DNA of 64,000 bases from the NCBI GenBank assembly GCA_964585095.1, contig CAZPCN010000011.1, positions 9,367 to 73,366 on the forward strand, in the 5' to 3' direction. The translations under genes were made by a program, and so were the position numbers. The stretch comes from an uncultured Syntrophaceae bacterium. Lineage in GTDB: Bacteria; Desulfobacterota; Syntrophia; Syntrophales; UBA2192. The notes under the pieces were generated by a model, which searched no databases, was not told the DNA's origin, and saw only the letters and a program-made list of their open reading frames with translations. How positions within the stretch are numbered: the first letter of the stretch is position 1; the number at the start of each line of letters is the position of its first letter. Positions 3,131 to 58,490 of the stretch are shown in pieces.

Positions 3131-4033
3131 ATGATCCCTTTTTCGTTTATGGGACTGAAATCCAGCCTTCGCCGCTTCCTTTCGAGCCCCGGGTTCAATC
3201 ACCCCCTTGTCCCGGCGGGGCTCTTCGCCGTGACCGTTTTCACGACCCTCGCGGCCGGGGCGCTGCAGGCCGGCGTGAACCCCATCGAGAACCCTTCAGG
3301 CATCTGGAAGGGCATCCCCTTTTCCTTCACGCTGCTCCTGATCCTGGGCTGCCACGAACTGGGCCATTGGGTGGCCTCCCGCAGGCACGGGGTGGATGTC
3401 AGCTTCCCCTACTTCATCCCGGGACCCACGCTCGTGGGGACCTTCGGGGCCTTCATCGCCATGAAATCCCCCATATCGGACCGCAATGCCCTCATCGACA
3501 TCGGTGCGGCGGGGCCCCTCGCGGGGCTCGTCGTGACGATCCCCGTCCTGTTCGTGGGCCTGGCGCTCTCTCAGATCGTGCCGGCGGCGCAGACGGAGGG
3601 GGCCGGCATCCATCTCGGCGAATGCGCCCTGTTCTCGGCCGTCAACTGGCTCGTCAACGGCACGATCGGGCCCGACCAGGACGTGATCCTGCACCCCATG
3701 GCCTTCGCGGGATGGATCGGCCTGCTCGTGACCTCCCTCAACCTCATTCCCGTGGGGCAGCTCGACGGCGGGCACATCATCTACGCGATCTTCGGACAGC
3801 GCCAGCGCGAGGTGGCCTGGATGGTGGTGGGGATGCTGCTCGTTCTCGGCATCGTGGGCTGGGAAGGGTGGCTCATCTGGGGCGGGATCCTGCTCGCACT
3901 GGGCGTGCGCCACCCTCCGGTAATCTACGACTGGGGCGAGCTGGACAACCGGCGCCTGGCGGTGGGGTATGTGGCCATGCTGTGCTTTGCCCTGACCTTT
4001 ACCCCTATCCCCTTCACCAGCATCAACATCTGA
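3131..4033 (+). CDS. site-2 protease family (M50) membrane metalloprotease
   Basis: The product is a polytopic hydrophobic protein with an HExxH motif (GCHELGHWVASRRHGV) and a downstream LNLIPVGQLDGGH motif. Confidence 0.8.
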   Translation: MIPFSFMGLKSSLRRFLSSPGFNHPLVPAGLFAVTVFTTLAAGALQAGVNPIENPSGIWKGIPFSFTLLLILGCHELGHWVASRRHGVDVSFPYFIPGPTLVGTFGAFIAMKSPISDRNALIDIGAAGPLAGLVVTIPVLFVGLALSQIVPAAQTEGAGIHLGECALFSAVNWLVNGTIGPDQDVILHPMAFAGWIGLLVTSLNLIPVGQLDGGHIIYAIFGQRQREVAWMVVGMLLVLGIVGWEGWLIWGGILLALGVRHPPVIYDWGELDNRRLAVGYVAMLCFALTFTPIPFTSINI

Positions 4034-4035
4034 AA

Positions 4036-4070
4036 GGGTCTCGGGTCACGGGGATAGGGTCTAGGGCACA
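4036..4070 (+). repeat. GGGTNNN heptad array, 5 units (gggtctc gggtcac ggggata gggtcta gggcaca)
   Basis: Read directly. It starts 2 nt after the M50 protease stop (4031-4033). It is the left arm of an inverted pair. Confidence 0.9.
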
Positions 4071-4109
4071 AAGGTACAGAAGAAATTTAGAAACGAATTC
4101 TGCTTCCTT

Positions 4110-4141
4110 CCCGATACCCGATACCCTAAACCCGATACCCC
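4110..4141 (-). repeat. GGGTNNN heptad array, 4 units on the minus strand (gggtatc gggttta gggtatc gggtatc)
   Basis: Read directly. It starts 4 nt after the radC stop (4146-4148) on radC's sense strand. It is the right arm of the inverted pair, and the two arms flank a 39-nt AT-rich core. Confidence 0.9.
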
Positions 4142-4145
4142 TTTC

Positions 4146-4829
4146 TCAGAGGATGCCCTCCTCCCGGAAGCTGAAGAATCGGTTCTCGCCCACGATGAGG
4201 TGGTCGTGCAGCGCGATGTCCATGATGCGCGCCGCGTCCTGGAGGACCCTCGTGAGGCGGATGTCCGCGTCGGAGGGGCGTACGTGGCCCGAGGGGTGGT
4301 TGTGGACGAGGATGATGGCCGAGGCCTTGTGCGCGAGGGCCTTTTCGAGGACCTTGCGGGGGTAGACGACGGCCTGGTTCACGATGCCTTCCTGGATCGT
4401 CTCCACCCGGATGATGCGGTTGCGGGCGTTGAGGTAGATGACGGCGAAGTGCTCGTCCTTCAGGCCGCCCATGGACGAGAGACAGTAGTCGATCAGCTCC
4501 CTCGTCGAGGAGATCTGTTCGTGCTCCTCGGCCCTCTGCCGCAGGGTGAGGGACCCGACATCGCGAACGACGCGGAAGAGGGTGGCGGCGTGGGGGCCGA
4601 TCCCCGGGGTTGCCAGCAGGGCCTCGCGGTCGGCGTCGAGCACCCCCTTCAGGGAGCCGAAGCGCTTGAGAAGCTCCTTCGCCAGGGGCTTCACGTCCCT
4701 GCGGGGCAGGGCGTAGAACAGCAACAGTTCCAGGACCTCGTAATCCTGCAGGCCTGCGACGCCCGCCCGTTCGAACCGGGCTTTCAGCCTGTCGCGGTGT
4801 CCCAGGTGGTGGGGGCCGTCGGGGGTCAT
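4146..4829 (-). CDS. radC: RadC-like JAB/JAMM domain protein (UPF0758)
   Basis: The 227-aa product has an N-terminal HhH region (GHRDRLKARF...LQDYEVLELLLFYALPRRDVKPLAKELLKRFGSL) and the JAMM motif HNHPSGHVRPSDADIRLT. Confidence 0.85.
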   Translation of the reverse strand: MTPDGPHHLGHRDRLKARFERAGVAGLQDYEVLELLLFYALPRRDVKPLAKELLKRFGSLKGVLDADREALLATPGIGPHAATLFRVVRDVGSLTLRQRAEEHEQISSTRELIDYCLSSMGGLKDEHFAVIYLNARNRIIRVETIQEGIVNQAVVYPRKVLEKALAHKASAIILVHNHPSGHVRPSDADIRLTRVLQDAARIMDIALHDHLIVGENRFFSFREEGIL

Positions 4830-13046: not shown

Positions 13047-13081
13047 GGGTATCGGGGCTGGGGTCAAGGGTATAGGGCAAG
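13047..13081 (+). repeat. GGGTNNN heptad array, 5 units (gggtatc ggggctg gggtcaa gggtata gggcaag)
   Basis: Read directly. It starts 5 nt after the stop at 13039-13041. It is followed by the SD (AGAGGAG) and the ATG at 13106. Confidence 0.9.
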
Positions 13082-15320: not shown

Positions 15321-15359
15321 GAGAAGGTGAGAGGGTAAGAAGGGAAGAGGGTCAGAAGG
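15321..15359 (+). repeat. purine-rich short-period array (gagaaggtgagagggtaagaagggaagagggtcagaagg)
   Basis: Read directly. GG(G)T recurs every 7-9 nt. It lies 35 nt after the cobO stop and is followed by a GGCTTC...GAAGCC hairpin (15358-15377). Confidence 0.6.
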
Positions 15360-16316: not shown

Positions 16317-17515
16317 GCGATAGAGCCCGCGAGGCGAAGGACAAGAAAGCAGCCATCGGCCCCGACGTGGACCTGACGACCTTCACGGCGGAGCCCGTCA
16401 AGCATGATTATGTGAAGGACCTCAAGACGCTTCCCGTTGTCGACCAGGGCCGGCTTATCCAGGCCGGAATCGACACGAGCGAGAGCGGGCGCGCCGGGAC
16501 CTACATCCAGATGGACACGGCCGTCGTGCACTCCCACGCGAAGCAGGAAGGCCTCGAGGTAATTCCCATCAAGGAGGCCCTGAAGAAGCACGAGTGGGCG
16601 AGGGAGTACTACTGGAAGCTCGTGTCCGTCGATGCCGACAAGTACACCGCCGCGGCGGAGCTCAGCCTCCACGACGGCTACGTGATCCGGGCCCTGCCCG
16701 GCGCGAAGGCCGTCTGGCCCGTGCAGGCCTGCCTGTACCTCGACAAGGACAACATCAGCCAGTACGTGCACAACCTCATCATCGCCGAGGAGGGCTCGGA
16801 GCTGCACGTCATCACGGGCTGCGCCACGTCTCCCCGCCTCAAGCGGGGGCTCCACGTGGGGATCTCGGAATTCTTTGTGAAGAAGAACGCGAAGCTCAGC
16901 TTCACCATGATCCATCACTGGGCGGAAGAAGTGATGGTGCGGCCCCGTTCCGTGGGCATCGTCGAGGAAGGGGGGCTCTTCCTGAACAACTACATCTGCA
17001 TGAAGCCCGTCAAGAGCCTGCAGATGTACCCCACGACGCACCTCGTGGGCAAGGGGGCCGTGGCCCGCTTTTACAGCATCCTCGTGGGGACTCCGGGCTC
17101 CGAGATGGACGTGGGTGGCCGGATCCTGCTCAAGGCCGAGGACACGAAGGCCGAGATCATCGCACGGGCCATCACCAACGGCGGCACGATCATCAACCGC
17201 GGCGACCTCGTCGGCGAGGTGACCGGCGTGAAAGCGCACCTGGAGTGCAAGGGCCTGATCCTCAACGGCGGGATTATCCACGCCATCCCGGAACTCCAGG
17301 GCAAGGCGGACGGCGTCGAAATGTCCCACGAGGCCGCGGTCGGCAAGATCGCGCAGGAGGAGATCCTGTACCTCATGTCCCGCGGGCTCTCCGAGGACGA
17401 GGCGATCTCCACGATCGTCCGGGGCTTCCTCAGCGTGGACATCCCGGGCCTGCCCCCGAAGCTCCAGGAAGAGATCGACCGGGCCGTCGATTTGAGCTCG
17501 AAGGATGTGATGTAA
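16304..17515 (+). CDS. sufB: Fe-S cluster assembly scaffold, SufB/SufD family
   Basis: The ATG at 16304 has AGGAG 8 nt upstream and overlaps the sufC end. The product is 403 aa. The C-terminal SufBD block reads EAAVGKIAQEEILYLMSRGLSEDEAISTIVRGF. Confidence 0.8.
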   Translation: MRNLSDRAREAKDKKAAIGPDVDLTTFTAEPVKHDYVKDLKTLPVVDQGRLIQAGIDTSESGRAGTYIQMDTAVVHSHAKQEGLEVIPIKEALKKHEWAREYYWKLVSVDADKYTAAAELSLHDGYVIRALPGAKAVWPVQACLYLDKDNISQYVHNLIIAEEGSELHVITGCATSPRLKRGLHVGISEFFVKKNAKLSFTMIHHWAEEVMVRPRSVGIVEEGGLFLNNYICMKPVKSLQMYPTTHLVGKGAVARFYSILVGTPGSEMDVGGRILLKAEDTKAEIIARAITNGGTIINRGDLVGEVTGVKAHLECKGLILNGGIIHAIPELQGKADGVEMSHEAAVGKIAQEEILYLMSRGLSEDEAISTIVRGFLSVDIPGLPPKLQEEIDRAVDLSSKDVM

Positions 17516-17540: not shown

Positions 17541-17575
17541 GGGTCCAGGGTTCAGGGGACAGGGTCCAGGGCAAG
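17541..17575 (+). repeat. GGGTNNN heptad array, 5 units (gggtcca gggttca ggggaca gggtcca gggcaag)
   Basis: Read directly. It lies between a 9-bp hairpin (17518-17540) that follows the sufB stop and the terminator at 17585. Confidence 0.9.
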
Positions 17576-23396: not shown

Positions 23397-23431
23397 TGAA
23401 CCCTATACCCTGTACCCGAACCCCTATACCC
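23397..23431 (-). repeat. GGGTNNN heptad array, 5 units on the minus strand (gggtata ggggttc gggtaca gggtata gggttca)
   Basis: Read directly. The first unit covers the last two codons and the TAG stop of the phosphoglycerate mutase. The array ends 16 nt before the macro-domain ATG. Confidence 0.9.
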
Positions 23432-25004
23432 CCTCTTTGACGGCATAGCCGTCGCCATACACCAGCATCCGGTAGGTCTTCTCGATACGGTCCCAGTTCT
23501 CCTCGCGGTCCATGGACCAGTAGCGGCCGATGACGGAGACAACGCGGCCAAGCCCCAGCTCCGCGCACTTGTCCTCGATCTGCTTGACGTAGTTGGCCCC
23601 GCTCTCGGGCATCTCGCCGCGGCGCCCGAGCATGGCGTGGATGAAAAGCTCGGGGACGCCCTCCTTCTTTGCCATCTCCATCAGGGCGAGGAGATGGTTC
23701 ATCATGCCGTGGGAGCTGAAGAACGAGACGATCCCCATCAGGTGCAGGGCCGTCCCGCGCCGGATGGCCTCGGCCATGGTCCGCCGGTAGGCCTCGTTCG
23801 AGAAGAAGGCCCCGCTTTCGATCGCCCGGTCGATCTTCAGGCGGTCGGAGAACACGCGCCTGCCCGCGCCGATGTGGAGGTGCCCGGCTTCGGAATTTCC
23901 CACGGTGCCCGCCGGGAGCCCGACGGCCTCGCCCGAGGCGGCGAGCACGGAAAAGGGGAGGGAGGCGAGCAACCCGTCCATGACGGGGGTAAAGGCCTTT
24001 GCGATCAGGTTGCCGGCCTTCTCGGGGTTGTAGCCCCAGCCGTCGAGGATGAGCACGACGAGCCGGCGGAAGGGTGCCGGCGGTCTCTTCACCAGCAGGG
24101 ATTTCCCCTCCATGCGCTTCGGCACGGCGATGCCGTACAGCTCCAGGATCGTGGGCGCCACGTCGGTGAGTTCGCCCTCCTTGTGCAGCGCGAGGGGCTC
24201 CCCGGTTCCGGCAAGGACGAAGGGCACGGGGCTCGAGGTGTGTCCCGTGTCGACGGCCCCGTCGGGGTAGAGCCACCGCTCCACGGTGCCGTGGTCGGCC
24301 GTGACGAGCACGGGCACCCCCGCCCTGCGGGCTTCGTCGACGACGCGGCCCAACGCCCGGTCCACGGCCTCGACGGCGCGTATCACGGCGGCCTCGTTTT
24401 CGATGTGACCCACCACGTCCACGTTGGCGAAGTTGGCGAGGATGAAGTCGTGGCGGCCCTCGCGAATCTCGCGGATGGCGGCCCCCGCCACTTCGTCCAC
24501 GGACATCTCCGGCGCCTCGTCGAAGAGCTTCACGTCCTTGCGCGTGGGCACCACGATACGGTCTTCGTCGGGGTAGGGCGCCTCGCGCTTGCCGTTGAGG
24601 AAGTAGGTGACGTGAAACGCCTTCTCCGCCTCGGTGATCTTCACCTGCCGGATCCCGCTGCGGGAGAGGACCTCGCTCAGGGTGTCCTCCAACTCCTCTT
24701 CGGGCGGGAAGGCCACGTCGACCTGCAGCTCCCGGGAATATTCGATCATCGTCGCATAGTGCAGGCCGAGAGGGCCGGCCGTGGGGAACTCGCGGAACTC
24801 GTCCTCCGTGAGGCTGCGCGAGAGCTCCACCTCGCGCTCGCCGCGGATGTTGTAGAAAATGACCGCGTCTCCCTTCCCGATCCTCCCCGCGGGCCTGCCC
24901 GAGGGGTCCACCAGGACCAGGGGGTTGAGCGTCTCGTCGTCCTCGCCGCGGCGGTATGCGTCCCGCACCGCCCGGGACATGGCGTTCGATTTCGGTGTCG
25001 GCAT
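23424..25004 (-). CDS. gpmI: 2,3-bisphosphoglycerate-independent phosphoglycerate mutase, circularly permuted
   Basis: The start is the ATG at 25004 (AAAGGA upstream). Residues 1-306 match the canonical C-terminal part (IFYNIRGERE, ITEAEKAFHVTYF, ANVDVVGH, TADHG, GKSLLVK). Residues 315-526 match the canonical N-terminal part (VVLILDGWG, GLPAGTVGNSEAGHLHIGAGR, GRYWSMDREENWDR). Confidence 0.85.
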   Translation of the reverse strand: MPTPKSNAMSRAVRDAYRRGEDDETLNPLVLVDPSGRPAGRIGKGDAVIFYNIRGEREVELSRSLTEDEFREFPTAGPLGLHYATMIEYSRELQVDVAFPPEEELEDTLSEVLSRSGIRQVKITEAEKAFHVTYFLNGKREAPYPDEDRIVVPTRKDVKLFDEAPEMSVDEVAGAAIREIREGRHDFILANFANVDVVGHIENEAAVIRAVEAVDRALGRVVDEARRAGVPVLVTADHGTVERWLYPDGAVDTGHTSSPVPFVLAGTGEPLALHKEGELTDVAPTILELYGIAVPKRMEGKSLLVKRPPAPFRRLVVLILDGWGYNPEKAGNLIAKAFTPVMDGLLASLPFSVLAASGEAVGLPAGTVGNSEAGHLHIGAGRRVFSDRLKIDRAIESGAFFSNEAYRRTMAEAIRRGTALHLMGIVSFFSSHGMMNHLLALMEMAKKEGVPELFIHAMLGRRGEMPESGANYVKQIEDKCAELGLGRVVSVIGRYWSMDREENWDRIEKTYRMLVYGDGYAVKEGV

Positions 25005-25157
25005 GGCGTCCTTTCTGGGTTGTCCGGCGTCGTCAGCCGCAAGCGGAAGACCCCGAAAGGCCCACCGATCCTGCGGCGCCGGTCCATCATACTGGAAAAG
25101 GCCGCGCCGGTCAAAGGGACCTTTTCGGTTGCAATGAGGGAAGCGAAGTGATAAAAA

Positions 25158-25520
25158 ATGCTCGAAAAAGCGGGAATTTATCACTGCATGAGGAAGTCGG
25201 CCTGGGAGAAAACCCAGGAAGAGATATTCAAGGAACGGGCCGAGGTTCTCGGCCGCGCGGGGGAAGCGCTGGCGGCCGCGCTTTCCGAGGTGGACAGGAT
25301 CGACCGGCTGATCGTCGAGAGCGTGCGGACGGCCGGAGAGAGGCCCGGACTGGAGGCCCTGGCGGAGATCAACGGCGAAATCCGGCTCTACAACCGGGCC
25401 CGGGCATATGCCGAGTTGCGCTACTACTACCTCATCGTGACCCGGGAAGCCATGGGAATACGGCGCCACAAGGCCGTCGAGGAAATCTACCGGATCCCTC
25501 CGAAGAGAAAATATCTTTGA
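25158..25520 (+). CDS. hypothetical protein (120 aa, predicted helical)
   Basis: The ORF has genome-typical codon bias. I recognise no family. The SD is weak. Confidence 0.45.
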   Translation: MLEKAGIYHCMRKSAWEKTQEEIFKERAEVLGRAGEALAAALSEVDRIDRLIVESVRTAGERPGLEALAEINGEIRLYNRARAYAELRYYYLIVTREAMGIRRHKAVEEIYRIPPKRKYL

Positions 25521-25560
25521 ACAGCCGGTGACCGGGGCGACACCTTTGAGAACGGATCTG

Positions 25561-25601
25561 GAGGGCGAGAGGGTGAGAAGGTGAGAAGGTGACAAGGTCG
25601 G
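25561..25601 (+). repeat. octamer array (gagggcg agagggtg agaaggtg agaaggtg acaaggtc gg)
   Basis: Read directly. AGGTGAGA-type units have an 8-nt period. The array is flanked by the inverted 10-mers GAGAACGGAT (25548-25557) and ATCCGTTCTC (25645-25654). Confidence 0.7.
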
Positions 25602-25705
25602 ATGTGCTATCAGCCTGACGGGGCTCCTGGCTTTTCCTGCCTTCATCCGTTCTCAGCCCCTTGCCCTCCGTTATTTTGACAGCCATGTGCTGCGCGGCAT
25701 AGTGA

Positions 25706-26397: not shown

Positions 26398-26495
26398 GGA
26401 GACGGGAAGCTGAGAAGTTGTGAAGCTTGGAGAGGCCGAAAGCCAATCGCACAATATCCTCTTCTCCGAGCTTCATAACTTCCTAACTTCCATCC
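26398..26495. repeat. GAAGYT octamer-array hairpin element (copy 1)
   Basis: The left arm is ggagacgggaagctgagaagttgtgaagcttggagagg. The right arm is cctcttctccgagcttcataacttcctaacttccatcc. The arms are imperfectly complementary, with a 22-nt loop. The right arm contains the 21-mer CTTCATAACTTCCTAACTTCC (26471-26491), which is identical to 51104-51124. Confidence 0.8.
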
Positions 26496-26566: not shown

Positions 26567-27664
26567 ATGAAATCCTCATCGTGCATTCTGCGAATCATCC
26601 TTCTGGCTCTTTCGGGGATCCTTCTTCTTTCCTGTTCCATCCAGGTCGTCGACCGAAGCAGCCTCAAATCCTCCGAGCGCATGCGGGGCGTCTACCACCG
26701 GGTCAAGCCGGGCGAGACGCTGTGGCGGATCTCCAGGGCCTACAACGTCGACCTCCAGGAACTGGCCGAGATCAACAACATCACCGATGCCTCCCGCATC
26801 GGTGCGGACAGCGTCGTCTTCGTCCCCGACGCCCACGAGGTCATCGACATCCCTCCCGCCAGGCCGCCGGCCGAGACAAAACCGCCCGCACCCAGGACGG
26901 CCGAAAAGCCGGCACTCGCCGCATCGCAACCGGAAACCGCAAGCCCCGCGGCCGCGGCGACCGGTGCCGCCGCCATCGGCGGGCCCAGCAGGGTGAAGGA
27001 GGAGAGCATCACCGACCGCGCCCCGGCGTACAGGCCGGAGCGAGGAGCGGCCGCCAGGCCGCCCACACCCGTCCCCACGGAGAAGGCGGTGCCCAAGCCG
27101 TTGGAGAAACCCGATACATCGGCTACCTCGGCTGCAAAAACCCAGGCGGCCGCAAGACCGCCTGCCCCGGTGCCCCCGGTAAGGACCCCCGACACGGCGC
27201 TCAAGGACAGGGCCGCGGTGCCACCGCCGCCGAAGAAGCCCGAACCGACCGTACGGGCCGATGAGCCGCAGGGGCAGATCCGGGTGGAGAAGGGACGGTT
27301 CCTCTGGCCCGCGAAAGGGCCCGTGATCACCCGGTTCGGGATCCAGCCCAGCGGGATGAAGTACAACGGGATCAAGATCGCCGCGAAAGAGAACACGCCG
27401 GTCCAGGCGGCTGCAGCCGGTACGGTCATCTATGCGTCATACGTCAAGGGCTACGGGGAAACGGTGATCGTCAAGCACGACGAGAACTACACGACGGTCT
27501 ATGCCTACCTGAAGAACACGGTGGCGAAACGGGACGAAAAAATCCGGAAGGGCGAGAGGATCGCCTCCGTAGGCCCGTCCCAGGAGCAGGGCGGGGAGCC
27601 GTACCTGTACTTCGAGATCCGGGAGAAAAACAAGGCGCGAAACCCCATGTTCTTCCTGCCGTGA
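26567..27664 (+). CDS. nlpD: LysM-domain M23 peptidase lipoprotein (NlpD-like)
   Basis: The ATG at 26567 gives MKSSSCILRIILLALSGILLLSCS (lipobox). It has a LysM domain (YHRVKPGETLWRISRAYNVDLQELAEIN), a Pro/Ala-rich linker and an M23 C-terminus. The alternative start is the GTG at 26555. Confidence 0.85.
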   Translation: MKSSSCILRIILLALSGILLLSCSIQVVDRSSLKSSERMRGVYHRVKPGETLWRISRAYNVDLQELAEINNITDASRIGADSVVFVPDAHEVIDIPPARPPAETKPPAPRTAEKPALAASQPETASPAAAATGAAAIGGPSRVKEESITDRAPAYRPERGAAARPPTPVPTEKAVPKPLEKPDTSATSAAKTQAAARPPAPVPPVRTPDTALKDRAAVPPPPKKPEPTVRADEPQGQIRVEKGRFLWPAKGPVITRFGIQPSGMKYNGIKIAAKENTPVQAAAAGTVIYASYVKGYGETVIVKHDENYTTVYAYLKNTVAKRDEKIRKGERIASVGPSQEQGGEPYLYFEIREKNKARNPMFFLP

Positions 27665-27669
27665 AAAAC

Positions 27670-27697
27670 GGGTATCGGGTATAGGGTCTCGGGTATC
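27670..27697 (+). repeat. GGGTNNN heptad array, 4 units (gggtatc gggtata gggtctc gggtatc)
   Basis: Read directly. It starts 5 nt after the nlpD stop (27662-27664). Confidence 0.9.
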
Positions 27698-36789: not shown

Positions 36790-37640
36790 GAATCCTGGTG
36801 ATGGGCCACAAGGGCATGCTGGGAAGCGACCTCGTGGAGGTTTTGGGCAGGGGCCATGACGTCGCGGGCGTCGACGTGGCCGACTTCGACATCACTTCGG
36901 CGGCGGACTGCGCCCGGGTCGTCAGGGAGTTCCGTCCCGGGACGGTCGTCAACGCCGCCGCCTACACCGACGTGGACGGCTGCGAGACCCACCGCGACGC
37001 CTGCTTTGCCGTCAATGCCGAAGGGGTGAGAAACGTGGCGGAGGCCTGCAGGGCTGCCGGGGCGAAGGCCGTCCATTACAGCACGGACTACGTCTTCGAC
37101 GGGACCAAGGGCGATCCCTATCTCGAGGAAGATCCCTGCAGGCCCATCAACGCCTACGGGGAATCCAAGCGCAAGGGCGAAGAGGCGCTCGTCGAGACCC
37201 TGGAGCGCCACGTGCTGATCCGCACGGCCTGGCTCTACGGACGCCAGGGGAAGAACTTCGTCAAGGCCATCCTGGCCAAGGCCAGGGACGAGGGGACCCT
37301 TCGGGTCGTCGACGACCAGGTGGGTTCCCCCACCTTCACGCTCGACCTGGCGCAGGCCACGAAACTGCTCATCGAACGGGACTGCCTCGGGACGTACCAC
37401 GTGACGAACCGGGGCGTGTGCAGCTGGTACGACTTTGCCCGGCGGATTCTCGAGTACGCCCAGGTGGCGGGGGTGACCGTGGTGCCCATCCGGTCGAACG
37501 AGCTGGACCGGAAGGCCGCCCGCCCGTCCTACTCGGTGCTGAGCAACCGCAAGTTCATGGAGGCGACGCAGAAGACCATGCGGCCCTGGCAGGTCGCCCT
37601 GAACGACTACCTGAGCGGCCAGAGCCACATCCCCAGGTGA
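36786..37640 (+). CDS. rfbD: dTDP-4-dehydrorhamnose reductase
   Basis: The ATG overlaps the truA stop (ATGA). It carries MRILVMGHKGMLG, YSTDYVFDG and YGESKRKGE (YxxxK). It is 284 aa. Confidence 0.85.
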   Translation: MRILVMGHKGMLGSDLVEVLGRGHDVAGVDVADFDITSAADCARVVREFRPGTVVNAAAYTDVDGCETHRDACFAVNAEGVRNVAEACRAAGAKAVHYSTDYVFDGTKGDPYLEEDPCRPINAYGESKRKGEEALVETLERHVLIRTAWLYGRQGKNFVKAILAKARDEGTLRVVDDQVGSPTFTLDLAQATKLLIERDCLGTYHVTNRGVCSWYDFARRILEYAQVAGVTVVPIRSNELDRKAARPSYSVLSNRKFMEATQKTMRPWQVALNDYLSGQSHIPR

Positions 37641-37646
37641 AAAGAA

Positions 37647-37688
37647 GGGTATTGGGGATAGGGTATCGGGTATCGGGTATCGGGTGTG
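37647..37688 (+). repeat. GGGTNNN heptad array, 6 units (gggtatt ggggata gggtatc gggtatc gggtatc gggtgtg)
   Basis: Read directly. It starts 6 nt after the rfbD stop (37638-37640). Confidence 0.9.
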
Positions 37689-39536: not shown

Positions 39537-39575
39537 GGGTTCAGGGGACAGGGTCCAGGGTCCAGGGTACAGGGG
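39537..39575 (+). repeat. GGGTNNN heptad array, 5 units plus GGGG (gggttca ggggaca gggtcca gggtcca gggtaca gggg)
   Basis: Read directly. It starts 5 nt after the mutL stop and abuts the miaA ATG at 39576, so it fills the whole spacer. Confidence 0.9.
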
Positions 39576-43297: not shown

Positions 43298-43300
43298 TCA

Positions 43301-43335
43301 GGGTTCAGGGGCCAGGGTTCAGGGTACAGGGGAGA
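43301..43335 (+). repeat. GGGTNNN heptad array, 5 units (gggttca ggggcca gggttca gggtaca ggggaga)
   Basis: Read directly. It starts 3 nt after the valS stop and ends 6 nt before the nadC ATG. Confidence 0.9.
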
Positions 43336-43341
43336 ATCGGA

Positions 43342-48045: not shown

Positions 48046-48674
48046 TCAAGATCCTCATCGCCGACGATCACCCCATCGTGAGGCAGGGGTTCAAGCAGGT
48101 CCTCTCGGAGACGGCGGACCTCGTGGTGGCCGACGAAGCGGGAAACGGCCAGGAGGTGCTCTCCCTGGTCGGCCGCAAGGACTACGACGTGATCCTGCTG
48201 GACATCTCCATGCCGGGCAAGAACGGGCTCGAGGTGCTCAAGGAGCTGAGGATCGCGAACCCGAAGATCCCCGTCCTGATCCTGAGCATCTACCCCGAGG
48301 AGCAGTACGCCATCCGCGCCCTGAAGGCCGGGGCCTCCGGCTATCTCACGAAGGCCAGCGCCCCCGAGGAACTCATTTCGGCCATCCGCAAGGTCTCGCG
48401 GGGCGGGAAGTACATCAGCTCTTCCCTGGCGGAAAAGCTTGCCTACGAACTCGACGGCGATGCGGAGAAGGCCCCCCACGAAACGCTTTCGGACCGCGAG
48501 TACCAGATCCTCCTCATGATCGCCTCGGGGAAGACCGTTTCCGACATCGCCGAGGAGATGTGCCTCAGCGTCAAGACGGTGAGCACCTACCGCTCGCGGA
48601 TCCTGGACAAGATGAAGCTGAAGAACAACGCGGAGCTCACGACGTACGCGATCCGGAACAAGCTGGTAGAATAG
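48042..48674 (+). CDS. NarL/FixJ-family response regulator
   Basis: The ATG overlaps the kinase stop (ATGA). It carries MIKILIADDHPIVRQG, a DISMPGKNG receiver domain and a LuxR HTH (LSDREYQILLMIASGKTVSDIAEEMCLSVKTVSTYRSRIL). Confidence 0.9.
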   Translation: MIKILIADDHPIVRQGFKQVLSETADLVVADEAGNGQEVLSLVGRKDYDVILLDISMPGKNGLEVLKELRIANPKIPVLILSIYPEEQYAIRALKAGASGYLTKASAPEELISAIRKVSRGGKYISSSLAEKLAYELDGDAEKAPHETLSDREYQILLMIASGKTVSDIAEEMCLSVKTVSTYRSRILDKMKLKNNAELTTYAIRNKLVE

Positions 48675-48708
48675 GGTCTAGGGGCTCGGGTATAGGGTCT
48701 GAGGGACG
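48674..48708 (+). repeat. GGGTNNN heptad array (gggtcta ggggctc gggtata gggtctg agggacg)
   Basis: Read directly. The first G is the last base of the response-regulator TAG stop. It is the left arm of an inverted pair. Confidence 0.9.
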
Positions 48709-48740
48709 AAGAATTTGTTATAGATGAAATCTTATTCCAT

Positions 48741-48772
48741 CCCGATACCCTAGACCCGATACCCGATACCCC
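48741..48772 (-). repeat. GGGTNNN heptad array, 4 units on the minus strand (gggtatc gggtatc gggtcta gggtatc)
   Basis: Read directly. It is the right arm of the inverted pair around a 32-nt AT-rich core (48709-48740). It ends 15 nt before the ferredoxin ATG. Confidence 0.9.
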
Positions 48773-48787
48773 GTTCCGAAGGAACCC

Positions 48788-48976
48788 ATGCGCATCGTCA
48801 TCAACAAACAGGCCTGCATCGGCTGCGAGATCTGCGTGAACACCTGCCCGGAGGTGTTCCTGGAGTGGGGCCTGCACATGCGGGCAACCTTCGAGGTCAA
48901 GGACCCGGAACGGTATCAGGCCCTCATCCGGAAAGTTGTCGAGGATTGCCCCGCACGGGCGATCTCCATCACCTGA
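48788..48976 (+). CDS. small ferredoxin
   Basis: The 62-aa product contains CIGCEICVNTCP plus a distal CP motif (EDCPARAI). Confidence 0.8.
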   Translation: MRIVINKQACIGCEICVNTCPEVFLEWGLHMRATFEVKDPERYQALIRKVVEDCPARAISIT

Positions 48977-51018: not shown

Positions 51019-51127
51019 GGATGGAAGCTGGGAAGTTGAGATGTTGTGAAGTTGAGAATCGGATTCGTCGGTCGAACGACGAGGAGTCATCCGCGCTTCC
51101 TAACTTCATAACTTCCTAACTTCCGTC
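51019..51127. repeat. GAAGTT octamer-array hairpin element (copy 2)
   Basis: The plus-strand left arm is ggatggaagctgggaagttgagatgttgtgaagttgag. The core contains a CGTCG...CGACG mini-hairpin. The right arm is gcttcctaacttcataacttcctaacttccgtc. The element fills the topA-trmFO spacer and contains the 21-mer shared with 26471-26491. Confidence 0.8.
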
Positions 51128-58391: not shown

Positions 58392-58490
58392 CTCCTTTTG
58401 CAAAGGAGCGAGCGACTCTCCCCCTTTGAAAAAGGGGGATAAAGGGGGATTTGAGTGGAATAAGCGGAAGTAAACGAGGCCTTCGGGCCT
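58392..58490 (+). repeat. cluster of three small hairpins with a tandem AAAGGGGGAT duplication
   Basis: The hairpins are ctccttt-tgc-aaaggag (58392-58408), tcccccttt-gaa-aaaggggga (58419-58439) and aggcc-ttcg-ggcct (58477-58490). The 10-mer aaagggggat occurs twice in tandem (58431-58450). Confidence 0.7.

Follow-up and report, generated by a model that had tools for sequence, protein, structure and literature searches.

The 112-nt gap (4034–4145) between two convergent genes, one for a Peptidase M50 protein of the site-2 protease family and the other for a RadC-family protein, lies in a 64,000-nt stretch of DNA from an uncultured Syntrophaceae bacterium (contig CAZPCN010000011.1, positions 9,367 to 73,366), referred to below as the window. 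Nearly all of this gap is taken up by one element, made of two inverted arrays of G-rich heptads around an A/T-rich core. The element is a real structure and a copy of a dispersed, multi-copy family. Judged by its sequence, it belongs, with a probability of about 0.9, to a family of repetitive extragenic palindromes of ~105 nt that is restricted to the genus and has, as its arms, heptad arrays of the type described from Xanthomonas and Nostoc (Rehm et al. 2015, PLoS One; PMC4692102). It is a new example of that kind of repeat and no new class of terminator. At one orthologous site, the spacer between fliF and fliG, pairing between the arms has been maintained while the units themselves were replaced.

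Each arm is 31 nt long, or 4.4 units, with five tracts (Table 1). The first-pass annotation of this DNA had recognized the array pair and its AT-rich core; its count of five units in one arm and four in the other is corrected here to five tracts in each, and its 39-nt core to 43 nt, counted between the outermost tracts. The identities it gave to the two genes are borne out by Pfam (PF02163 Peptidase_M50 and PF04002 RadC), read from identical contigs; the 112-nt gap is identical to that of the window in six metagenome contigs. The predicted hairpin is imperfect, with ~30–45 bp, and folds on both strands (−43.3 and −48.9 kcal/mol; z −3.5 and −4.0), with none of 200 shuffles as good. Within the core, CAGAA (4077–4081) pairs with TTCTG (4098–4102) in a small inner stem. 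There is no U-tract, as the annotation had also said: a consensus scan of 3800–4400 found no terminator, no T-tract and no promoter in the gap, and the tails beyond the stem read CTTTCTC on one strand and TTTCAGA on the other.

Could such an arrangement have arisen by chance? The window has 22 matches to GGGN4GGGN4GGGN4GGG, whereas shuffles lead one to expect 0.13; together with the genome-wide excess of period 7, this excludes chance. The covariance models of Rfam 15 gave a single chance-level match (E = 0.84), outside the element, and copies of the family lie in both orientations relative to their flanking genes (18 to 11), so that the suggestion of a structured small RNA has no support. A scan of genome contigs with TTCCNTCCCNATACCC gave random matches scattered over phyla.

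A dispersed family at gene ends

The source genome (G000 in comparisons with its congeners) is a 3.16-Mb draft in 248 contigs, 99% complete and with 64% G+C, in which genes were called with a rough codon-usage caller of our own. It has Rho, and it carries trmFO, a gene that, to our knowledge, gammaproteobacteria are without. Period-7 arrays with at least four G-tracts number 285 genome-wide, and periods 4–6 and 8–10 give at most 15 each; 186 of the 285 have exactly five G-tracts (4.4 units). Intergenic tandem arrays of at least three copies, as listed by Tandem Repeats Finder (TRF), have, with few exceptions, a period of 7 (203) or 8 (145). The heptad units are GGGTATC, GGGTATA, GGGTCTC, GGGTCTA and GGGTNCA. 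Intergenic positions account for 91% of the arrays, and 176 are G-rich on the sense strand just 3′ of a stop codon, with a median spacing of 5 nt; among solo arrays, 104 of 139 are G-rich in sense right after the stop. Arrays are found in 4.7% of divergent, 17% of convergent and 8% of co-directional gaps. They are not enriched at contig ends and are therefore not an assembly artefact.

Neighbouring arrays at most 150 nt apart are ordered G-arm then C-arm in 65 cases and in the reverse order in only one, with a peak of separation at 39–47 nt. Whether paired arms are commoner than independent arrays predict was a comparison set beforehand, and they are: 18 pairs were observed in 354 convergent gaps versus 4.4 expected if independent (p = 2e-9), and 44 versus 5.0 in 1914 co-directional gaps. 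The pairs fall into two classes. In one, with gaps of 53–78 nt, the arrays stand on either side of a bidirectional terminator of the usual make (A-tract, GC hairpin, T-tract), and all but two lie between convergent genes. In the other, with gaps of 37–51 nt, the spacer is a conserved core.

An nhmmer census of the three-part family, in which 63 copies are near full length, found 68 loci, all of them outside coding sequence. Just two are in the window (4036–4140 and 48674–48771), the second being the recurrence of the three-part design that the annotation had pointed out. When 39 core-bearing copies were oriented by arm type before alignment, all 39 aligned as one asymmetric family: GGGTATA units end the left arm, the A/T-rich core, 37–47 nt long, reads (GCTGAAGGTAnnnA or GAAG)AGATTGTTTTATAGACnAAATCYnnTTCCWTC, and the right arm is CCCGATA CCCGAGn CCCGATA, i.e. 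of the GGGTATC type. The motif GAAGAA(A)TTT, earlier noticed in both cores of the window, is part of this family-wide consensus. The asymmetry of the arms gives a systematic A·G mismatch per heptad when they are paired. The mean minimum free energy (MFE) over the 39 copies is −46 kcal/mol.

Where are the copies found? Of the near-full-length copies, 61 have called genes on both sides: co-directional genes flank 43 of them, convergent genes 15 and divergent genes 3, the last placement being depleted relative to the 17% of gaps that are divergent. The idea that each arm belongs to its own upstream gene thus fails for the family. The fliF–fliG copy starts 5 nt past the fliF stop and ends 12 nt before the fliG ATG (as identified by Pfam on the flanking proteins), and a further operon-type copy separates a radical-SAM/SPASM gene from a NirD/AhbA-like gene, a pair that resembles alternative haem biosynthesis genes.

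This distribution bears on the proposal, already made in the first-pass annotation, that such elements form a bidirectional class of intrinsic terminators without a U-tract, in which the G-arm/C-arm hairpin itself would release RNA polymerase arriving from either side. The hairpin does fill a convergent gap that has no canonical terminator, three U's stand in its pyrimidine-rich tail (CUUUCUC; UUUCAG on the other strand), and Xanthomonas transcripts start or stop at repeats capable of forming a G-quadruplex (G4) more than at control repeats (PMC4692102). Canonical terminators at gene ends were scored with a simple hairpin-plus-T finder. At convergent ends, they follow 40% of genes with no array, 33 of 40 with a solo G-array and 4 of 10 with a three-part element; at co-directional ends, the corresponding shares are 18%, 24% and 1 of 35. 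Solo arrays therefore lie in the 3′ untranslated region (UTR) ahead of real terminators, and three-part elements are seldom accompanied by one. The near absence after co-directional copies, compared with array-free ends, could mean that the element substitutes for a terminator, and it also counts among the evidence against an efficient terminator. On the other hand, the next start codon is at most 35 nt from the element in 10 of 29 co-directional cases, and one congener (G017) has only a 16-nt spacer at a site where this genome has a full element. The genome also has normal hairpin-plus-T bidirectional terminators, often wrapped by G and C arrays, and the consensus scan detected no T-tract at the element. 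Given the mostly co-directional placement and the copy between fliF and fliG, an efficient terminator is unlikely, and the proposal as a whole is improbable. A terminator-like position at the ends of transcription units is true of the copy in the M50–RadC gap and not of the family.

A miniature mobile element had been suggested as well. The family is indeed dispersed, with between 0 and >100 copies per genome among congeners; however, the other marks of such an element were not found. Flanking direct repeats show no excess that would indicate target-site duplication (1.06 nt versus 0.90 ± 0.18 nt in swapped-flank controls). The RAYT (Y1/IS200-like) transposase family, PF01797, has no match in the 99%-complete genome, and control genomes give matches. 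No G-array...C-array pair 300–4000 nt apart stood out as a parent element, proteins having been only partly screened.

The closest known systems are the G-rich heptamers GGGAATC/(GGGANTN)n of Xanthomonas and GGGGA(C/T)T of Nostoc PCC 7120, which occupy 183–186 loci per genome, with a mode of four units and 89–93% of loci intergenic (PMC4692102). They lie on the coding strand close to stops, seldom occur between divergent genes, form 70–75 convergent inverted pairs per genome in Xanthomonas, and vary in length and sequence between the same genes of related species; they form G4 in vitro, and no function was found for them (PMC4692102). The arrays described here likewise have 7-nt G-triplet units in mixed variants, a comparable number of loci (~180–290 per genome over both groups), a preference for about four units and ~90% intergenic positions, and they too are anchored at stop codons, scarce between divergent genes and frequently paired in inverted order. 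Since every sequence-level feature that defines the Xanthomonas and Nostoc heptamers is present, the element belongs to that kind, with which the cyanobacterial STRR heptamers are grouped. There are differences, however. The host is another, uncultured lineage with a ~3-Mb genome, and the units are GGGTATC, GGGTATA, GGGTCTA or GGGTNCA. The spacer of a pair is a conserved core, which makes the pair a dispersed composite repeat, whereas Rehm et al. left spacers unanalysed. Heptad families other than G3 and octamer families share the layout, and the co-variation of the arms at an operon spacer points to the hairpin, not G4, as the feature maintained.

Other repeats show partial likenesses. The REP/BIME elements of enterobacteria are also extragenic, multi-copy imperfect palindromes past stops, within operons and at operon ends, in both orientations and in species-specific families, and in BIME-1/RIP of E. 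coli a pair of inverted, GC-rich units encloses an A/T-rich core of ~40 nt that binds protein. REP, however, is a single palindromic unit of 35–40 nt, whereas the arms here are tandem heptads with a strict G-rich-arm-first polarity, and there is neither a RAYT (Y1) transposase nor an IHF consensus. Miniature inverted-repeat transposable elements (e.g. the Correia elements of Neisseria) resemble the family in their ~100-nt length, terminal inverted repeats, dispersal, lineage-specific expansion and position near gene ends, but the ends here are tandem arrays of variable length, with no target-site duplication and no parent element found with the same ends. Bidirectional intrinsic terminators share the palindrome centred in a convergent gap, purine-rich 5′ and pyrimidine-rich 3′ on both strands; the elements here differ from them in having no GC-rich tip stem with a T-tract and in being operon-internal in many copies.

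Both the Xanthomonas/cyanobacterial heptamers and this family are anchored to stop codons. The heptads GGGTCTA and GGGTATA, read together with the following GGG, contain TAG, and three units give a stop in all three frames (e.g. window 48672–48680, or C16:30687 of G000). Several genes end on or within the first heptad unit (distance −1 or −8), and in one congener (G013) the fliF reading frame seems to enter the array.

Turnover of units and maintenance of pairing at orthologous sites

The genome was compared with 17 congeners. The period-7 array pattern is found in 16 of them, in 2–245 copies each, and in 0–7 copies in 13 genomes from other genera or families of the same order; it is nearly confined to the genus. 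Counted with a covariance model of the core and inner arms, the three-part family has 106 matches in this genome, 104 in G008, 94 in G003, 62 in G004, 56 in G015 and 2–32 in ten further congeners, and none in the well-assembled G006, G009 and G016. A heptad family with CGAGGNN units has the inverse pattern (307 in G001, 9 in this genome, 0 in G017); a reversed control pattern gave 0 everywhere.

The fliF–fliG spacer was recovered from 15 congeners, every one of which, like this genome, has a heptad-armed hairpin there. These hairpins are 97–127 nt long, have energies of −37 to −62 kcal/mol and start 0–5 nt past the stop, and yet the units differ by species, being GGGTATA/GGGTACA, AAGGCTN, CAGGCAC or CAGGCGA. 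In the alignment, consensus pairs are kept in 91.7% of cells versus 83.9 ± 1.5% in shuffles, a value reached by 0 of 500 shuffles, and there are 21 double changes versus 9.1 ± 2.6. These counts come from related sequences, not from independent events, but slid controls, which keep the relatedness, still fall far below (33–61% paired, with 0–3 double changes). Pairing has been maintained at this site. Since GGC units cannot form G-quadruplexes, it is the hairpin, not the quadruplex, that persists.

The same comparison weighs on the view that the (GGGN4)5 arm works as an RNA or DNA G4 with a regulatory role in transcription, in translation termination or in decay. Either arm matches the canonical G3N4 motif and has one tract to spare, and the preference for five tracts has its parallel in the four-unit peak of Xanthomonas, where oligonucleotides of the repeat form G4s in vitro (PMC4692102). 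With the G-quadruplex model of ViennaRNA switched on, the MFE structure predicted for solo arrays contains a G4; the three-part elements, however, still fold as hairpins, which win by >30 kcal/mol once the C-arm is present. Moreover, orthologous spacers keep the architecture with units free of G-triplets (AAGGCTN, CAGGCGA, CGAGGAT, GGTGACA), which cannot form G4s, and octamer arrays of the same layout are nearly as common as those of heptads. A regulatory G4, as far as these energy models and unit sequences can tell, appears very unlikely.

The M50–RadC gap itself has a heptad-armed hairpin in 11 of 15 congeners, with units GGGTTCA, GGGTACA, GGGTATT or CGAGGAT and with differing cores; six of seven spacers fold at −41 to −73 kcal/mol (z −2.3 to −10.8). 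In the remaining four congeners (G006, G012, G009 and G016; loci L136, L138, L139 and L140), this gap holds a palindromic repeat of ~170–200 nt with ends like CAGGATTCT...AGAATCCTG. Ten other orthologous sites were compared, and this genome has the three-part element at seven. G008 shares its family at five of these seven and G002 at one; other congeners have, in the same gaps, heptad hairpins of GGTGACA, AAAGGCT or GGCTGTT units, octamer arrays or other palindromes. The same element as at 48674–48771 is found at the orthologous site in G008, which also has an array in the same place as the solo array at 37647–37684, with different loop bases. Between orthologous arrays, GGG is retained and the loop bases drift.

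Might a protein read these sequences? The architecture resembles that of BIME-1/RIP, with GC-rich inverted units around a sequence-conserved, A/T-rich core of ~40 nt, so that the element could bind a nucleoid protein (IHF or HU, for example) or be recognized as an array by a protein with a 7-nt register; retention of GGG with drifting loop bases would fit such a reading. However, the E. coli IHF consensus WATCAANNNNTTR has no match anywhere in the window, the core ranges from 16 to 51 nt among all pairs, and the units differ so widely between species at one site that a single reader protein could hardly follow. There is presumably little chance, and a very slim one at that, of a protein-binding module of this kind.

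Some further observations concern individual sites. At one orthologous gap (C9:22738–22830 of G000; L172 in G008), the three-part elements of the two species are in opposite orientations, which implies that either the two arrived independently or a whole element was inverted. In the fliG leader of G014, G005, G011 and G001 (L187–L190), a small conserved hairpin, GUUCCGUGAGGAAC, past the heptad hairpin holds a GAGGAA Shine-Dalgarno sequence. Species with arms of the GGG type have no obvious Shine-Dalgarno sequence ahead of fliG.

A proposed protective hairpin and its rival, tolerated repeat DNA

Why would a long hairpin be kept right after stop codons? The composite pairs, the units that cannot form a G4 and the comparison at fliF–fliG together move the question from the role of a G-quadruplex to this one. 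By analogy with REP elements and other stem-loops of E. coli that have no U-tract, we tentatively propose, as the best reading and at somewhat less than even odds, that the element acts as a protective stem-loop, the action of which would be independent of its exact sequence. The hairpin would block 3′-to-5′ exonucleases and, through this block, set and protect the 3′ ends of both converging mRNAs, and operon-internal copies would protect the upstream cistron. RNA polymerase would be let go only inefficiently at the hairpin, or further downstream. The arms may evolve through gain and loss of 7-nt units combined with arm-to-arm correction, and the family may spread, or be homogenised between sites, by a copying route that does without a RAYT transposase.

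Several points weigh against the protective hairpin. An exonuclease block does not explain the strict polarity of G-arm then C-arm (65 to 1). In the family alignment, RNAalifold finds no covariation, and the own halves of a copy pair slightly worse than halves swapped between copies, a result that is partly an artefact of pair selection. The cross-species alignment at the M50–RadC gap gives weak covariation, with arms that align in shifting registers. There is no rut-like stretch with C>G just downstream of the hairpin (C/G 0.88 and 0.80). The three well-assembled congeners without the family show that the family as such is dispensable, and even at fliF–fliG, the co-variation of the arms could stem from fold-back template switching instead of selection.

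The main rival is that these are selfish or neutral hairpin-forming repeats, made by slippage and fold-back synthesis, copied between sites and tolerated just past stop codons, with no function for the host. The extreme variation of copy number among congeners, including three near-complete genomes without the family, the bloom of CGAGGNN units in another species, the rapid turnover and replacement at orthologous gaps, the missing own-arm covariation within this genome and the use of both orientations relative to genes would all be expected of such DNA, and no regulatory role was seen for the Xanthomonas repeats (PMC4692102). However, the fliF–fliG hairpin has been kept in every species recovered, with arms that co-vary despite changed units, and most congeners keep a heptad-armed hairpin at the M50–RadC gap. 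The sharp length peak at exactly five G-tracts is unlike free slippage, and solo arrays obey a strong sense-strand rule. On balance, purely neutral repeats are rather unlikely.

Returning to the protective hairpin, a broader version of it can be formulated, which we consider unlikely and offer as speculation. Hairpins with arms of tandem 7- or 8-nt units, invariably with the purine- or G-rich arm first whichever strand is read, might form a general, sequence-independent class of gene-end elements, made by a dedicated step-size mechanism of slippage and fold-back correction and kept by selection for pairing. With no U-tract, they would insulate genes and protect 3′ ends, and the G-first polarity would keep the C-rich arm from being a free loading site for Rho. 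If this were true, a genus with at least five unit families that swap at orthologous sites would be a natural test bed.

The genus adds three facts to what is known of such heptamers: an inverted pair can make up a composite repeat that is conserved and has a core of its own, units incapable of forming a G-quadruplex can build the same layout, and at fliF–fliG the hairpin is present in this genome and every congener recovered, with its unit sequence replaced and its arms changing together. In annotation, such elements should not be labelled terminators or small RNAs by default.

Other arrays and repeats in the window

The features of the window are collected in Table 1. Apart from the two family copies, there are seven solo arrays. 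The family copy at 48674–48771 lies between a response-regulator gene, the TAG of which overlaps the first G, and a small ferredoxin-like open reading frame (ORF) that starts at 48788.

Table 1. Coordinates in the window of the element, its flanking genes, the second family copy and the solo arrays
Feature	Position	Strand	Details
Peptidase M50 (site-2 protease family) gene	3131–4033	+	TGA at 4031–4033; ORF list, codon-usage calls, Pfam PF02163 on identical contigs
RadC-family gene	4146–4829	−	Stop at 4146–4148 (TCA on +, TGA on −); ORF list, codon-usage calls, Pfam PF04002
Whole palindrome	4032–4145		Predicted hairpin, from second base of M50 stop to 1 nt before RadC stop
G-arm, GGGTCTCGGGTCACGGGGATAGGGTCTAGGG	4036–4066	+	GGGTCTC GGGTCAC GGGGATA GGGTCTA GGG; five G-tracts, period 7
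A/T-rich core, CACAAAGGTACAGAAGAAATTTAGAAACGAATTCTGCTTCCTT	4067–4109		43 nt; fits family core consensus GCnGAAGGnAnnnAAGATTnTTTTATAGACnAAATCTTnTTCCTT; from family alignments and fold
C-arm, CCCGATACCCGATACCCTAAACCCGATACCC	4110–4140	−	Minus strand GGGTATC GGGTTTA GGGTATC GGGTATC GGG; inverted array, five C-tracts on +
Second family copy	48674–48771		G-arm 48674–48697, core 48698–48740, C-arm 48741–48771
Solo G-array	13047–13077	+	5 nt past stop of upstream + gene
Solo G-array	17541–17571	+	Past stop at 17515; followed by hairpin-plus-T terminator
Solo array	23401–23431	−	G-rich on −; overlaps stop of − gene 23424–25646
Solo G-array	27670–27693	+	5 nt past stop at 27664
Solo G-array	37647–37684	+	Six G-tracts; 6 nt past stop at 37640
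Solo G-array	39537–39574	+	Fills mutL–miaA spacer
Solo G-array	43301–43331	+	Fills valS–nadC spacer

At convergent ends, solo G-arrays mark 3′ UTRs that lead into strong terminators. The valS–nadC spacer (43298–43341) is 44 nt here, almost wholly G-array, versus ~230 nt, conserved and with an octamer-type hairpin, in G002, G006, G008 and G017; this lineage has replaced or deleted the spacer.

Arrays and hairpins of a second family, with 8-nt units (AGAAGGTA, GAGAAGGT, GAAGCTGA/CTTCCTAA), are found in the window at 15322–15359, 25567–25598, 26406–26491 and 51024–51124. Its purine arm comes first, as in the heptad elements. Another palindromic repeat, AAATCCCCC...(loop)...GGGGGATTT, lies at gene ends in G000 (contigs C8, C10, C13 and C33), G001, G006 and G008 (loci L166–L168 and L172), and sometimes occupies sites that are held by heptad hairpins in other species. 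A duplicated AAAGGGGGAT, related to this palindrome, is found at 58431–58450 of the window.

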